From the IMG/VR virus record IMGVR_UViG_2690316241_000021: 7,850 nucleotides of DNA, one strand, 5' to 3'. Below the pieces are notes generated by a model. The model ran no database searches and was not told the origin of the DNA. It saw only the letters and a program-made list of their open reading frames with translations. The translations under genes and the position numbers were made by a program. Each line of letters opens with the position of its first letter. The first letter of the stretch is position 1. This document shows, one piece after another, positions 1,061 through 7,196 of this stretch. The stretch comes from a virus. Taxonomy: Duplodnaviria; Heunggongvirae; Uroviricota; Caudoviricetes.

Positions 1061-1190
1061 ATCATGATTGGACGGTGTAAGGACAACACCAACAAAAACA
1101 GGAAGTTAGCAGTCTCAGCAGGACACCGACCAGACGGTGAGGAGACAAAAAAGGATACGCAAAGGAGCCGCGGCTCTCAAGTGTGAAAGA

Positions 1191-1216
1191 AGCCCGCAAA
1201 TTGCGGGCTTTTTTAT
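1191..1216 (+). terminator. Rho-independent terminator downstream of ssrA
   Basis: GC-rich hairpin AGCCCGC-aaatt-GCGGGCT (1191-1209) followed by the T-tract TTTTTTATT. A short palindrome GAGCCGCGGCTC lies just upstream (1166-1177). Confidence 0.7.
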
Positions 1217-1269
1217 TGATCAGTCAACAATAAACAGTAACCGAATGAGAATTTAATAAGGATATTCAT

Positions 1270-2301
1270 ATGGAAGCTACTGTGGATTCGATTGATTTTC
1301 TGATCCGTAGTGAAGATGATTTTCTAAACTTTCTGGAAGAAATGAAAGCCCGAGAGGGGCTTGATTCTAAAGAGTTTATTTTCCCTAACGTAAAGTTTGC
1401 AGGCTGGCCATCCTTAGACATAAATGTAAAAGGAGAGCGGTATCATTCATCAATTACATCAGCAATGTTGTTTGGTATGTCAATGCTCAACGAGGAGATA
1501 CAGCGGGCGTTTGCAACCATACGATACGGATCGCAGAATCTTCAACGCTTGACTAATGAAGACAAGCAACGACTTGATATAAATTTTAAAATTAGCGAAG
1601 GTTCTAGTGATGCGGAAGGCACCACTGACAAGATCATCAACGCAGTAACTGATTTTTTGCGAGATACTATGTCTGGACTGAACGGCTGGCAGAAAATGCT
1701 TGTTATAATCACAATGGTTGGCGCGGCCAGCACATGTGGTTATCACTACATTTCAGAAAATGCCGTAACAGAAAGACATGCAACTGATCGGCAGGTTGAA
1801 ATTGCAAAAACCACATCCGATGGCATAAACAAAGCCATAGAAGCAACATTAGATTATAAAATCTATGGGAAATCAGCGATTAGCGATAAAGTTACTAGTC
1901 ACGGACAAGCAGGTAAAAGTGCTTTAGTGAAGCAATTAGCTGCTGATCCTACTGTCGAAACCGTGACTTTAGGAAATGAGAAACTAACACGACAAGACCT
2001 AAATACCTACAACAGCCGACAATCTGTAGATAGAGAACGTAAAGAACGAACTGATATATTTTCCATCAAAGGTGTAACCAGAACAGGGCCAACAAATCAG
2101 GATATTAATATTAACGTTGTTAGGGTCTCTAATGACGAATGCTTCACAATCAAAGCTTCAGCTGATGTTATCACCCAAGATGAGTTGACAGCTATTGTTG
2201 ACGCTTTGTCAAACAACTCTCATATTAAAATCAGTTACTTAGAGGTAATTGAAAAGGGTGCTGTTTCTATAGGTCAGTTCAACACTATTGTTTCAGAATA
2301 A
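1270..2301 (+). CDS. Hypothetical protein (343 aa), AT-rich accessory gene
   Basis: Long uninterrupted ORF with an SD-like AAGGA 7 nt upstream of the ATG. By eye it is clearly more AT-rich than smpB (not computed). One internal hydrophobic stretch (WQKMLVIITMVGAASTCGYHYI) could be a membrane helix. I recognise no conserved motif. Confidence 0.6.
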   Translation: MEATVDSIDFLIRSEDDFLNFLEEMKAREGLDSKEFIFPNVKFAGWPSLDINVKGERYHSSITSAMLFGMSMLNEEIQRAFATIRYGSQNLQRLTNEDKQRLDINFKISEGSSDAEGTTDKIINAVTDFLRDTMSGLNGWQKMLVIITMVGAASTCGYHYISENAVTERHATDRQVEIAKTTSDGINKAIEATLDYKIYGKSAISDKVTSHGQAGKSALVKQLAADPTVETVTLGNEKLTRQDLNTYNSRQSVDRERKERTDIFSIKGVTRTGPTNQDININVVRVSNDECFTIKASADVITQDELTAIVDALSNNSHIKISYLEVIEKGAVSIGQFNTIVSE

Positions 2302-2352
2302 TCACTTAACCCCATTTATGTCGGTTGAGGTTATAAGTCACGGAGACCAGAT

Positions 2353-2697
2353 ATGTCCTTAAAGTATGCACATGAAAAATTTCATACTGCAGTACTTACT
2401 CTTGCGGGCCATGGAAGTATTCAAGAACGCTTGATTAATTCGTATGTTTTTAGCCTTGGGCATCTTAAAACAGCCGATGATATTCCAAATGCCTTACAAA
2501 GCAGGTTCGATGAATTATGTAAGGAACTGACTAAGTTTGATGCCACTGGCGATGAGGGGCGAGTTCAAGCAACAGTATCAAAACTTAACGATTTCGAGAT
2601 CAATAAACTGATCGAAGATATTGTCAGTCTTAACGATGATATTTGCATGAAATTGGCTCTGACGGATGAGACTTACCAAGACATACACCAAAGTTAA
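2353..2697 (+). CDS. Hypothetical protein (114 aa), probable operon partner of the upstream ORF
   Basis: ORF with SD GGAGA 6 nt upstream of the ATG, 51 nt after the stop of the 343-aa ORF, same strand, similarly AT-rich. Its last four codons and stop (I-H-Q-S-TAA, 2683-2697) lie inside the outer end of the left inverted repeat. No recognisable motif. Confidence 0.5.
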   Translation: MSLKYAHEKFHTAVLTLAGHGSIQERLINSYVFSLGHLKTADDIPNALQSRFDELCKELTKFDATGDEGRVQATVSKLNDFEINKLIEDIVSLNDDICMKLALTDETYQDIHQS

Positions 2698-2724
2698 TTG
2701 ATTAAATTCAAAAAGTTAACGTTC

Positions 2725-2756
2725 AACCAGCCAGTTTTTGGCTGGTTTATTGTCTT
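2725..2756. terminator. Hairpin terminator (left copy), probably bidirectional
   Basis: Stem AACCAGCCA-gtttt-TGGCTGGTT (2725-2747) followed by TTTATTGTCTT on the plus strand. This suits termination of the 343/114-aa operon. On the minus strand it follows the 70-aa ORF with a weaker T-rich tail. Confidence 0.5.
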
Positions 2757-2781
2757 ATAATATTCTTGCTCGAATGATGCA

Positions 2782-2994
2782 CTATTTATGATGTAATCCG
2801 GACATCAGTTCATGGACAAGATTATCTCTTTCATTGTGTTGCAACCGTAAATGCATAGCAAAAAGGTGAGCACTATCCTCATTCCTCTTCAAGCCATGCT
2901 GTTCAAGATACCCGAAAAAACGGCTTCTCTTATCCGCTATTTCCTGAGTCTGACGTGCAACATTTACCAAATTTTCTAGCGTTTTTCTTGGCAT
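2782..2994 (-). CDS. Hypothetical small protein (70 aa), left copy
   Basis: ORF with a strong SD (AGGAGG, 7-nt spacer) lying downstream of the invertase within the repeat arm and followed by the hairpin. Identical to the copy at 6580-6792. Function not recognised. Confidence 0.55.
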   Translation of the reverse strand: MPRKTLENLVNVARQTQEIADKRSRFFGYLEQHGLKRNEDSAHLFAMHLRLQHNERDNLVHELMSGLHHK

Positions 2995-3192
2995 ACTATT
3001 TCCTCCTGAAATTGTTGTAATTCACTAGGATATTCATTTTAATTTGTATCATTTAGTACCAAAACCGCTATCAATTAACAAAGCCATCGTTGTGGTTTAC
3101 CTTGCAGCCGTTTTTTGTCATTGACTCTATGTGAAAATAATGAATCATCATGAGATTGGCTCACACGTTCTTGAATTCGACGAGCTGTGTCT

Positions 3193-3747
3193 TTATTTAT
3201 CTCCTGCCGGAAACCTCTGATACAAAGTCGATACGCCAACATCATAGATAATCGCAACTTTCTGGCGCGGAACTCCTGATGCAATTAATCGTCCGGCTTG
3301 TGCCCATTGTTCTGGTGTAAGTTTGGGACGACGTCCACCAATTCGTCCCTGTGCGCGAGCAGCTTCCAGTCCAGCTTTTGTTCGTTCAACAATCAGTTCT
3401 CGTTCCATTTCAGCCAGGGCCCCCATCACATGAAAGAAAAAGCGCCCCATTGGGGTACTGGTATCAATTGAATCCGTCAGACTACGAAAGTTGATGCCTC
3501 GTTCGCGCAACTCCTCCACCAGCACGACAAGATGCCGCATACTGCGCCCCAGTCGGTCCAGTTTCCAGACCACCAGCGTATCGCCTGCCGATAATGTCCT
3601 GAGCAGTTTTTTCAGTCCCGGCCTTTCGGACTTTGTACCGCTTATCTTGTCTTCAAAAATCAGCTCGCATCCTGCACAGTTCAGCGCATTACGTTGTAGA
3701 TCTGTGTTCTGGTCATTTGTTGACACACGTACATAGCCAATAAGCAT
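3193..3747 (-). CDS. Serine DNA invertase, Hin/Gin/Cin/Pin family (left copy)
   Basis: The protein MLIGYVRVSTNDQNTDLQRNAL...VVWKLDRLGRSM...GRFFFHVMGALAEMERELIVERT...KVAIIYDVGVSTLYQRFPAGDK carries the catalytic-serine N-terminal motif of small serine recombinases and a Hin-like C-terminal HTH. The start is placed at the internal ATG (3747), which is preceded by SD AGGGAGA. The ORF track's upstream ATG at 3783 would add 12 residues. Confidence 0.9.
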   Translation of the reverse strand: MLIGYVRVSTNDQNTDLQRNALNCAGCELIFEDKISGTKSERPGLKKLLRTLSAGDTLVVWKLDRLGRSMRHLVVLVEELRERGINFRSLTDSIDTSTPMGRFFFHVMGALAEMERELIVERTKAGLEAARAQGRIGGRRPKLTPEQWAQAGRLIASGVPRQKVAIIYDVGVSTLYQRFPAGDK

Positions 3748-3773
3748 GGTAGATCTCCCTGACAAAAGCAGGA

Positions 3774-4286
3774 ATGATGCCATTTGCTCGTTATTTCTGC
3801 ATTTTCATAAACGTTGGTTTGGGAGAAGGTTCGGCATTACCCGTTGGTGTGCCTGTTCCGTGGCCTTCCGCCACTCCGCCAACGGGGTGGCTAAAATGTA
3901 ACGGAGCAGTATTTTCTTCTGAAAAGTACCCAAATCTGGCAAAGGCTTACCCAACATTAAAATTACCAGATTTACGCGGTGAATTTATTCGTGGCTGGGA
4001 TGATGGGCGCGGGATTGACTCTGGTCGTAACTTATTATCTGCACAGAATGATGCAATTCAGAATATTGTTGGTTCTTTTGGGCGTACCCAGCTTTTTAGA
4101 GACGTACTTAGTTCAGGGCCATTTAGTCAACATGGGCAAGTATTATCTACAGGTCTAAAGGAAGCCGCAATTATTGAGGGTTATGGCGCTTATAACTGGA
4201 CATTCGACGCATCTCGCTCAGTTCGCACAGCATCTGAAACCCGCTCCCGTAACATCGCCTTTAATTATATTGTGAGGGCTGCATGA
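3774..4286 (+). CDS. Tail-fibre variable C-terminal cassette Sv (receptor-binding domain); not fused to a constant region in this orientation
   Basis: The frame is open across site A. The translation contains VPVPWPSATPPTGW...YP.L...YP...PDLRG and ends ...NIAFNYIVRAA, matching the C-terminal region of lambda Stf / Mu S-type side tail fibres as I recall them. The ATG-ATG at 3774 is probably not the physiological start. The stop overlaps the tfa start (ATGA). Confidence 0.7.
   Translation: MMPFARYFCIFINVGLGEGSALPVGVPVPWPSATPPTGWLKCNGAVFSSEKYPNLAKAYPTLKLPDLRGEFIRGWDDGRGIDSGRNLLSAQNDAIQNIVGSFGRTQLFRDVLSSGPFSQHGQVLSTGLKEAAIIEGYGAYNWTFDASRSVRTASETRSRNIAFNYIVRAA
3802..3827. promoter_or_regulatory. 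hix/gix-like 26-bp crossover site A
   Basis: TTTTCATAAACG-TT-GGTTTGGGAGAA: two imperfect 12-bp inverted half-sites around a 2-bp core, resembling hixL and gix as recalled. It lies about 20 bp upstream of the invertase gene and at the inner edge of the repeat arm. Confidence 0.7.
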
Positions 4287-5305: not shown

Positions 5306-5800
5306 TTACCGTCCAATGATTAACGCTGAGACGCTGGTATCTGAAGGAAAGGCTGCATTCAGTGGTTTGTCGACTTTGAACACAATCGTATTATTCCCCC
5401 TGACAGCGGCAAAAGAACAAACCGCCGTCGCGTATGAACCTGTAATATTACTGGATACACCACCATAAGCTGTTGTTGATACCAGAGGGATAACGCCCAG
5501 CACCTTATTAGGAAATACAAAGGGCAATGTGGCTGTGGCAATATAAGACTTATTAGAACCTGTAATGGCATAAGCATTATCAGTCATTCCATTCATCGCC
5601 ACTGGACCGCTTATACTTACAGTAACCATCTGAATGATTAGCCCGTCAGGTTGACGAATCACAAAATTTCCATTGCCACCAGTAACCGTCCAGAAAGACA
5701 TATCAGGGATTTGGTTTTCCCCGTTGCCCACATTTCGTTTTGCCGCTTCTCCCAAACCAACGTTTATGAAAATGCAGAAATAACGAGCAAATGGCATCAT
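5306..5800 (-). CDS. Alternative tail-fibre variable C-terminal cassette Sv'
   Basis: The frame is open across site B and shares the repeat-encoded prefix ...INVGLGE with Sv before diverging into a different sequence. Assigned by its mirror position and its pairing with Tfa'; the domain itself is not recognised by me. Confidence 0.6.
   Translation of the reverse strand: MMPFARYFCIFINVGLGEAAKRNVGNGENQIPDMSFWTVTGGNGNFVIRQPDGLIIQMVTVSISGPVAMNGMTDNAYAITGSNKSYIATATLPFVFPNKVLGVIPLVSTTAYGGVSSNITGSYATAVCSFAAVRGNNTIVFKVDKPLNAAFPSDTSVSALIIGR
5747..5772. promoter_or_regulatory. hix/gix-like 26-bp crossover site B
   Basis: TTCTCCCAAACC-AA-CGTTTATGAAAA, the exact reverse complement of site A, about 20 bp upstream of the right invertase copy. 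Confidence 0.7.
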
Positions 5801-5826
5801 TCCTGCTTTTGTCAGGGAGATCTACC

Positions 5827-6381
5827 ATGCTTATTGGCTATGTACGTGTGTCAACAAATGACCAGAACACAGATCTACAACGTAATGCGCTGAACTGTGC
5901 AGGATGCGAGCTGATTTTTGAAGACAAGATAAGCGGTACAAAGTCCGAAAGGCCGGGACTGAAAAAACTGCTCAGGACATTATCGGCAGGCGATACGCTG
6001 GTGGTCTGGAAACTGGACCGACTGGGGCGCAGTATGCGGCATCTTGTCGTGCTGGTGGAGGAGTTGCGCGAACGAGGCATCAACTTTCGTAGTCTGACGG
6101 ATTCAATTGATACCAGTACCCCAATGGGGCGCTTTTTCTTTCATGTGATGGGGGCCCTGGCTGAAATGGAACGAGAACTGATTGTTGAACGAACAAAAGC
6201 TGGACTGGAAGCTGCTCGCGCACAGGGACGAATTGGTGGACGTCGTCCCAAACTTACACCAGAACAATGGGCACAAGCCGGACGATTAATTGCATCAGGA
6301 GTTCCGCGCCAGAAAGTTGCGATTATCTATGATGTTGGCGTATCGACTTTGTATCAGAGGTTTCCGGCAGGAGATAAATAA
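5827..6381 (+). CDS. Serine DNA invertase, Hin/Gin/Cin/Pin family (right copy)
   Basis: Identical protein to the left copy. SD AGGGAGA lies 6 nt upstream of the ATG at 5827. It diverges outward from crossover site B. Confidence 0.9.
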   Translation: MLIGYVRVSTNDQNTDLQRNALNCAGCELIFEDKISGTKSERPGLKKLLRTLSAGDTLVVWKLDRLGRSMRHLVVLVEELRERGINFRSLTDSIDTSTPMGRFFFHVMGALAEMERELIVERTKAGLEAARAQGRIGGRRPKLTPEQWAQAGRLIASGVPRQKVAIIYDVGVSTLYQRFPAGDK

Positions 6382-6579
6382 AGACACAGCTCGTCGAATT
6401 CAAGAACGTGTGAGCCAATCTCATGATGATTCATTATTTTCACATAGAGTCAATGACAAAAAACGGCTGCAAGGTAAACCACAACGATGGCTTTGTTAAT
6501 TGATAGCGGTTTTGGTACTAAATGATACAAATTAAAATGAATATCCTAGTGAATTACAACAATTTCAGGAGGAAATAGT

Positions 6580-6792
6580 ATGCCAAGAAAAACGCTAGAA
6601 AATTTGGTAAATGTTGCACGTCAGACTCAGGAAATAGCGGATAAGAGAAGCCGTTTTTTCGGGTATCTTGAACAGCATGGCTTGAAGAGGAATGAGGATA
6701 GTGCTCACCTTTTTGCTATGCATTTACGGTTGCAACACAATGAAAGAGATAATCTTGTCCATGAACTGATGTCCGGATTACATCATAAATAG
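6580..6792 (+). CDS. Hypothetical small protein (70 aa), right copy
   Basis: SD AGGAGG at 6567-6572 with a 7-nt spacer, then MPRKTLENLVNVARQTQEIADKRSRFFGYLEQHGLKRNEDSAHLFAMHLRLQHNERDNLVHELMSGLHHK. Followed by the hairpin at 6827-6849. Confidence 0.55.
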   Translation: MPRKTLENLVNVARQTQEIADKRSRFFGYLEQHGLKRNEDSAHLFAMHLRLQHNERDNLVHELMSGLHHK

Positions 6793-6818
6793 TGCATCAT
6801 TCGAGCAAGAATATTATA

Positions 6819-6849
6819 AGACAATAAACCAGCCAAAAACTGGCTGGTT
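6819..6849. terminator. Hairpin terminator (right copy), probably bidirectional
   Basis: AACCAGCCA-aaaac-TGGCTGGTT at 6827-6849. On the minus strand it is followed by TTTATTGTCTT, so it would stop transcripts coming from the tail-fibre constant region. Confidence 0.5.
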
Positions 6850-6872
6850 GAACGTTAACTTTTTGAATTTAA

Positions 6873-7196
6873 TCAATTAACTTTGGTGTATACTTCTCCC
6901 AAACCAAGGTTTTCGAGAGCCGTTTTCACCGTGCCATCAGATTTGATATCGCCAAACGGATTCTTGCGGCTTAACAGCAGCGCACGAAGCGCGGTAAGCA
7001 GCTGGTCATGCCGCCCCTTCTCCAGGCTGGCACCGGATGCCTCCACCACGCTGCAGAGTTCTTCCTGCAACATGTCAAAGTAGTCATCATCCAGATCGGT
7101 GGCAGGTGTGCCGGTCTGGGGGTTACCACGGGTAAAACCGTTCTTACCCGCGCCGAACTTATCCTTCTGCGCGGTTTTCGTGTCTATACGATGCAT
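6873..7196 (-). CDS. Tail-fibre N-terminal constant region (Sc analogue), ending in a repeat-encoded stub
   Basis: 107-aa ORF starting 3 nt after the stop of the upstream baseplate gene. Its 3' end runs through crossover site C and then reads only V-Y-T-K-V-N-stop from the repeat's outer end. Assigned from position and the in-frame crossover site, not from recognised homology. Confidence 0.55.
6894..6919. promoter_or_regulatory. hix/gix-like 26-bp crossover site C, inside the 3' end of the tail-fibre constant region
   Basis: TTCTCCCAAACC-AA-GGTTTTCGAGAG. Its first 14 nt are identical to site B and it is a near-palindrome of the hixL type. It lies 3 bp outside the repeat arm. On the minus strand it encodes ...ENLGLGE, in the same frame relative to the core as the ...NVGLGE encoded at sites A and B. 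Confidence 0.65.

Follow-up and report, generated by a model that had tools for sequence, protein, structure and literature searches.

What do two AT-rich genes that lie between ssrA and a phage-type invertase do, and do they belong together? The question is raised by a stretch of 7,850 nucleotides (nt), hereafter the window, from the virus record IMGVR_UViG_2690316241_000021 (Caudoviricetes) in IMG/VR. The window holds, on its plus strand, two open reading frames (ORFs), ORF1 (1270-2301; 343 amino acids) and ORF2 (2353-2697; 114 amino acids, acidic and predicted to be all-alpha). The original prediction, made from the letters of the window alone, had regarded them as a pair of foreign origin matching no familiar protein family, seated in an accessory slot beside the invertase and at a hotspot of island integration, with a possible role in anti-phage defence. 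Its description of the pair, down to coordinates and orientation, proved accurate: the two genes are 51 nt apart and point the same way, each is preceded by its own Shine-Dalgarno-like site (AAGGA 8 nt before the ATG of ORF1, within a leader at 1221..1269 on the plus strand, and GGAG 7 nt before that of ORF2), and both are more AT-rich than neighbouring smpB, with a G+C content of 0.395 for ORF1 and 0.386 for ORF2 against 0.516, and of 0.34 against 0.57 at third codon positions.

The answer that emerges concerns mainly ORF1. This gene is a functional, horizontally mobile and stand-alone prophage accessory gene, of the kind known as a moron, and its relatives recur in places where temperate phages keep lysogen-expressed genes that act on other phages. 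ORF2 and a third small gene, ORF3, are lineage-specific; they travel with ORF1 only in this Escherichia coli element and are not its required partners.

The ORF1 family and its genomic slots

ORF1 is a full-length member of PHROG 6191, a group of unknown function (E = 6.8e-38, residues 7-340 on profile positions 5-331 of 338), so that the earlier statement that the protein could be matched to no familiar family needs to be qualified in this one respect. It stands for the curated collections, since ORF1 has no match in Pfam (E<=0.1) or in NCBIfam, and ORF1, ORF2 and ORF3 alike gave no match to PADLOC-DB 2.0.0 at E<=1. A first homology search returned 76 clusters at 90% identity, and 117 once a profile search had added a distant subfamily; these 117 are all from Enterobacterales, every named member is called "hypothetical" and none carries a Pfam domain. 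An exhaustive profile search extended the family to 844 clusters at 50% identity (E<=1e-3; 501 of them at E<=1e-10), nearly all of 315-360 amino acids and aligned either end to end or over the N-terminal half, with many matches covering only residues 5-180. Distant relatives occur in Pseudoalteromonas, Pseudomonas putida and a Moraxella phage, and the hosts of the family further include Pantoea, Rahnella, Lonsdalea and Xenorhabdus. Among 120 diverse relatives, no Pfam or PADLOC family was found in more than one member. Sequence profile searches of the PDB returned no related solved structure, only weak and composition-driven matches to membrane-anchor regions such as those of MotB and Tom20. 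In literature other than the phi458 phage's own paper, we found no statement on proteins of this family under their RefSeq accessions, the PHROG number or the phage names phi458 and PhiR12. Two database records had to be set aside: the GenBank label "T2SS GspM containing protein" attached to the homolog of PhiR12_2 (L003, 5899-6924) has no Pfam support in ORF1 or in its 120 relatives, and the one match suggesting plasmid carriage is a single-cell contig of 2.6 kb, which is not evidence of it. The family is large, uniform in size (around 330 amino acids) and confined to prophages and islands.

Where these genes are found was followed by gene calls and neighbour scans in 50 related loci, 40 of which have a visible upstream gene. 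At 19 of the 40 the immediate upstream gene is a co-oriented repressor of the cI type that carries HTH_3 and Peptidase_S24 domains and lies at a distance of 26-288 nt; these repressors fall into eight distinct types, and the downstream gene is usually arginine-rich and N-like. The order repressor, homolog, N is seen in the cultured phages phi458 and PhiR12_1 to _5, as well as in metagenomic prophages with a homolog 65% identical to ORF1, and in the Moraxella phage Mcat17 the genes run cro, cI, homolog. In three representative loci nothing like a terminator was seen between cI and the homolog, and a strong one follows the homolog at a distance of 9-43 nt. This layout, read from sequence, suggests that the homolog is transcribed in one unit with cI, in the manner of cI-rexA-rexB in phage lambda. 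The cI-N interval is described as a mosaic hotspot that holds rexAB and bstA and that is served by the strong lysogenic promoter of the repressor (PMC8585504). The copy of ORF1 in the window is itself not placed between cI and N.

The likeness to lambda Rex lies in position and in the presence of a membrane component, a predicted one in the case of ORF1. Relatives of ORF1 come immediately 3' of cI in the same orientation; no terminator separates them from it, and one closes them off before N. Rex, however, consists of a soluble RexA and a polytopic RexB, whereas the ORF1 family is made of single genes with one hydrophobic segment, and there is no similarity between ORF1 and either RexA or RexB (hhalign probability 0.1% each). 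BstA of Salmonella phage BTP1 is likewise a single gene 3' of a prophage repressor and confers defence (PMC8585504), but it shares no characterised domain with ORF1, for which Pfam has no match, and it has not been described as a membrane protein.

Other relatives occupy other cargo slots. In Klebsiella prophages the homolog lies between the tail chaperone gene (DUF6246) and the tape measure gene, the slot of gene 15 in HK97, a moron that encodes an inner-membrane exclusion protein (PMC3594210). Slots at prophage ends are also used, beside host yejM and tRNA-Pro in Enterobacter and in the order icd, homolog, int in Scandinavium and several IMG/VR prophages, and in Xenorhabdus the homolog adjoins tail fibre genes. 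HK97 gp15 and P22 SieA are lysogen-expressed single-gene morons (PMC3594210) with a proposed action at the inner membrane (PMC10883804); ORF1 is comparable as a single gene whose product is predicted, from hydrophobicity and charge bias, to lie in that membrane. They differ in being small proteins without large soluble domains (SieA has about 162 amino acids and three helices), against the 343 amino acids and two soluble domains of ORF1. The lack of any Pfam match argues against ORF1 belonging to a modelled family such as YebO, a result that involved no head-to-head alignment with gp15 or SieA.

The original prediction had joined ORF1 and ORF2 into one system, and at this locus several observations speak for a unit. 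No terminator-like site was found in the gap between the two genes, while a bidirectional terminator (2725-2747, a 10-bp stem followed by a T-run) stands after ORF2, where ORF2 and ORF3 converge. Among 5426 complete E. coli genomes, 46 match the segment of ORF1-ORF2 and 46 match that of ORF3, always in single copy and at no less than 99% identity. In a variant locus with 87.5% DNA identity (L018), the pair is kept while ORF3 is reduced to a remnant. The ratio of nonsynonymous to synonymous substitution rates against L018 is 0.066 for the C-terminal part of ORF1 and 0.15 for ORF2, and because these values are low we regard ORF1 and ORF2 as real genes under purifying selection. The downstream neighbour also differs in L018, where a yedK/SRAP-like gene (896-1276, N-terminus MCGRFAQ...) replaces ORF3 and pin; no fewer than two different neighbours have thus come to lie beside the pair.

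Across the family, by contrast, the pairing dissolves. ORF2 is present in 9 of 76 fetched loci with a relative of ORF1, all nine being near-identical versions of this E. coli locus, and is missing from the remaining 67. In Mangrovibacter, ORF1 (81% identical) follows smpB and ssrA as it does here, and pin comes directly next; in Cronobacter, ORF1 (82% identical) is followed by unrelated genes; and the 65%-identical homolog of the metagenomic prophages is the only gene in the cI-N interval. In the 50 related loci, the genes 3' of the ORF1 homologs include no small one whose size or orientation is conserved. ORF2 itself has only 6 relatives among 5.8 billion protein clusters, two of them partial matches and the full-length ones at least 84% identical, and it gave no match in the phage collection, Pfam, NCBIfam, PADLOC or PHROGs; its structure model (predicted local distance difference test, pLDDT, of 49) is too poor for a fold comparison. 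Absent from the family at large and kept with ORF1 in L018, ORF2 makes with it a local unit and not a family-wide system. The conserved two-gene system first envisaged is accordingly not supported: conserved pairing is absent from other genomes, and this tells against the pair and leaves ORF1 alone unaffected. As a separate observation, in Cronobacter (L004-L007, 10157-11188) a second gene for a protein of about 343 amino acids lies 1.1 kb 3' of the ORF1 homolog, and its product, hydrophobic by eye, has no Pfam match and is dissimilar to ORF1.

Predicted anatomy of ORF1

The AlphaFold (AF2) model of ORF1 was built with 36 homologs and reaches a mean pLDDT of 68.6, rising to about 90 for residues 255-343. 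Together with the alignments it suggests four parts. The first is an acidic N-terminal domain of mixed alpha/beta structure (residues 1-138; 1270..1683, plus strand), modelled over residues 9-135 at moderate pLDDT and marked by the motifs GWPxLxINVKG, NLQRLT..DK..LD and ISEGSS. It is negatively charged in 95-100% of family members, found no fold match in structure comparisons, and with a median identity to ORF1 of 28% across the broad family it is the conserved core of the protein.

It is followed by a probable single transmembrane helix (residues 142-162; 1693..1755, plus strand). The original prediction had noticed one internal hydrophobic segment in the larger protein, and this is indeed the only one: the stretch 143-161 has a Kyte-Doolittle mean of 1.41 over 19 residues, and the corresponding values in homologs are 1.2-1.8. 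The segment has a median identity to ORF1 of 16-24%, which makes it the lowest region among close relatives and one of the lowest in the broad family. That hydrophobicity is kept while the sequence is poorly conserved is what would be expected of a lipid-facing anchor.

Beyond the segment comes a helical hairpin that varies across the family (residues 165-228; 1762..1953, plus strand; modelled helices at 170-200 and 203-225), and then an acidic C-terminal oligonucleotide/oligosaccharide-binding (OB) fold (residues 255-343; 2032..2298, plus strand), modelled as a beta-barrel with one helix. Median identity of the hairpin and the OB-fold falls to 11-14% in the broad family. The OB domain has an isoelectric point of 4.9 and a negative net charge in 97% of close relatives, which speaks against nucleic-acid binding. 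As for orientation, the flanks of the hydrophobic segment show a mild bias, with lysine plus arginine at 1.8 and aspartate plus glutamate at 1.1 on the N side and 1.2 and 2.9, respectively, on the C side. This bias, together with the lack of a signal peptide before a domain of 140 residues, favours a cytoplasmic N-terminal domain and a periplasmic hairpin and OB-fold. ORF1 is thus predicted to be a single-pass membrane protein with its N-terminus in and its C-terminus out.

The cryptic element at ssrA

On the left of the gene, smpB (1-483) and ssrA (698-1060, encoding the tag ANDENYALAA) are followed by the Rho-independent terminator of ssrA (1186..1220, plus strand; hairpin AAAGAAGCCCGCAA/TTGCGGGCTTTTTT). 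Sequence 1061-1220 is shared, at 88-95% identity, with 4170 of 5426 complete E. coli genomes and similarity stops at about 1220, so that the island junction lies there, where sequence common to most E. coli ends at the ssrA terminator. The terminator hairpin is kept 5' of ORF1 homologs in other genera, and the homologs begin 50-72 nt past it in E. coli, in locus L030 and in Mangrovibacter. In Cronobacter and other loci, different ssrA-targeting islands (CP4-57-like, 186-like) have been inserted upstream of the ORF1 homolog and have left ssrA 3' fragments of 15-45 nt; ORF1 therefore marks the far side of an ssrA integration hotspot, as the original prediction had supposed of this site. A scan of the plus strand of the ORF1 leader (1221-1269) for sigma-70 promoters gave no convincing candidate. 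We infer that transcription of ORF1 and ORF2 would either start here at a weak local promoter or run on from ssrA past its terminator, which lies 50 nt before ORF1; for ORF1, read-through may be the source.

On the right, the sequence follows e14, the cryptic prophage of K-12, with DNA identities of 97% over ymfQ-stfP, 89% in tfaE and 91-94% over stfE-pinE. The e14 homology ends at 3191, the stop codon of pinE, beyond which e14 has mcrA and the window has ORF3-ORF2-ORF1. Since the homology stops at this very point, the positional argument of the original prediction was correct, and by this comparison the block of 2 kb at 1221-3190 is cargo at the pin end of a cryptic e14-type element. Its foreign origin, first proposed from AT-richness, is supported also by the small share of complete E. 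coli genomes that carry it. In e14 the corresponding cargo site, from pinE to the element's end, is taken by McrA, but this is an unrelated type IV restriction enzyme and is co-oriented with pinE, whereas here ORF3 alone is co-oriented with pin and ORF1 and ORF2 converge on it. ORF3 (2782-2994, minus strand, 70 amino acids), 3' of pin, had been overlooked; it has no family match in Pfam, NCBIfam, PADLOC or PHROGs, and is found in the same number of complete genomes as the pair.

The invertase gene itself (3193-3783, minus strand) encodes a Pin-type serine invertase with Pfam Resolvase and HTH_7 domains, a homolog of e14 pinE, and is context and not cargo. To the right of ORF3 and pin follow, in order, invertible tail-fibre and tail-fibre-assembly cassettes, the constant part of the fibre gene and a baseplate gene like Mu gp48/YmfQ. 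A short remnant of the element is seen in the complete genome NZ_CP189657, where the order is ssrA, ORF1, ORF2, ORF3, pinE, cassettes, fibre, ymfQ, IS3 and a ypjA fragment. P2-like surroundings, first suggested by tail genes in NZ_CP070071, were rejected in view of the e14 homology and the single-copy arrangement elsewhere. In that genome (L001), 14133-17314 holds fibre cassettes and then a second recombinase only about 82% identical to pin, beyond which lie P2-like tail genes (sheath, tube, E, T, U, D, ogr); the arrangement looks as though the invertible segments of two separate prophages had recombined by inversion.

The window also contains a perfect inverted duplication of 1146 nt, with its left arm at 2683-3828 and its right arm at 5746-6891, each arm holding the 3'-terminal 15 nt of ORF2 together with the terminator, ORF3, pin and a crossover site. 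Because the region is single-copy in the related IMG/VR loci (L024, L025, L029, L065) and in all 46 complete genomes, the second copy is probably either artefactual, created when a mixed invertible population was assembled, or a rare rearrangement; ORF1 and ORF2 are unaffected by it. In the same region there are three Pin crossover sites instead of two (3809-3828, 5746-5765 and 6893-6912), and the constant part of the fibre gene (6873-7196, minus strand) runs into the duplicated arm and then stops, with no C-terminal fibre cassette attached.

Candidate function and its alternatives

The defence role first suggested by the neighbourhood of the invertase gains strength from the recurrent cI-N slot, shared with rexAB and bstA, and from the other moron slots, and it still derives from genomic context. 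We consider that ORF1 is about as likely as not to be an anti-phage protein, that is, a lysogen-expressed exclusion or defence factor working broadly as follows. The protein would be produced in the lysogen and protect the cell, and hence the prophage, from other phages. It would span the inner membrane once, with the N-terminal domain in the cytoplasm and the hairpin and OB-fold in the periplasm. The variable OB-fold may recognise part of the incoming phage, for instance its tail tip, its tape measure or its ejection proteins, or else a factor of the envelope on which that phage depends. Either genome entry would then be blocked, as superinfection exclusion, or the conserved cytoplasmic domain, which would be the constant working part, would receive a signal. 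A block acting specifically at the envelope is a more tentative proposal, possible and leaning towards the unlikely.

Several points weigh against an anti-phage function. There is no homology link to any defence protein, as PADLOC has no match for ORF1 and no consistent match among the 120 members. The copy in the window does not stand behind a repressor and has no clear promoter, and the element around it is a decayed remnant. Moron slots also hold non-defence genes, for example lom, bor and effectors (PMC3594210). With regard to the topology, the hydrophobic segment is marginal in ORF1 (Kyte-Doolittle 1.05-1.41) and its membrane insertion is a prediction, and AF2 confidence is low for both the N-domain motifs and the hydrophobic helix.

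The most probable alternative is an AbiP/PdpSau- or RexAB-like abortive-infection protein contained in one chain: a cytoplasmic OB-fold would bind phage nucleic acid or a replication intermediate, the helix would perturb the membrane, and the cell would die or stop growing before the phage matures. Lactococcal AbiP and PdpSau (ORF016 of Staphylococcus aureus phage 53) provide a precedent, being single prophage accessory genes whose products combine one hydrophobic membrane-anchoring helix with an OB-fold (PMC10127798). The domain order and the charge are different, however. PdpSau, from Gram-positive hosts, carries its helix at the very N-terminus and has a basic, cytoplasmic C-terminal part, whereas in ORF1 a conserved domain of 140 residues precedes the helix and an acidic C-terminal part follows, predicted to lie in the periplasm. 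No sequence similarity to PdpSau is detectable either (hhalign probability 0.06%), and we regard this alternative as unlikely.

Still less probable, in our estimate, is a role unrelated to phage exclusion, in which ORF1 would serve lysogenic conversion or prophage regulation through envelope remodelling, host fitness or virulence, or the switch between lysis and lysogeny. Genes of this kind, from lom and bor to effectors and O-antigen modification genes, are housed in the same moron slots (PMC3594210); RexAB is cited, in a reference given in PMC12315714, as aiding the switch to lytic growth; and the locus persists here in a decayed remnant that needs no self-protection. Yet the hosts of the family span commensals, plant-associated bacteria and insect pathogens, which argues against a host-specific virulence role, and a variable C-terminal domain on a conserved N-terminal domain looks like the product of an arms race over recognition. 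An obligate multi-gene system in which ORF1 needs ORF2 (perhaps with ORF3) to work or to be tolerated, such as an effector with its regulator or a toxin with its antitoxin, is equally improbable, for the close spacing, shared terminator, joint occurrence and joint selection of the genes in E. coli are set against the many loci, close relatives included, where ORF1 does without them.

The anti-phage reading can be carried further, to a version that we put forward as speculative and hold to be improbable. The ORF1 family would then be a new and widespread class of one-protein anti-phage systems of Gram-negative prophages that signal across the inner membrane, in which the variable OB-fold in the periplasm, carried on a helical stalk, detects the injection machinery of an arriving phage and alerts the conserved cytoplasmic domain, of a fold so far unseen in solved structures, which executes the block. 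It would be the third tenant of the cI-N interval beside rexAB and bstA.

What is already known here is the category, a lysogen-expressed prophage moron in a known cargo slot. What is new is the family, for whose hundreds of clusters we found neither a curated model nor a solved relative nor a paper. It occupies the best-known exclusion slot in phage biology, that of lambda rexAB, which makes it a cheap and well-defined target, and the cultured carriers phi458, PhiR12_1 to _5 and Mcat17 make it possible to check whether a new family of exclusion or defence proteins has escaped notice. Should the predicted topology hold, ORF1 and its relatives would represent an unusual case of periplasmic phage sensing by an OB-fold.

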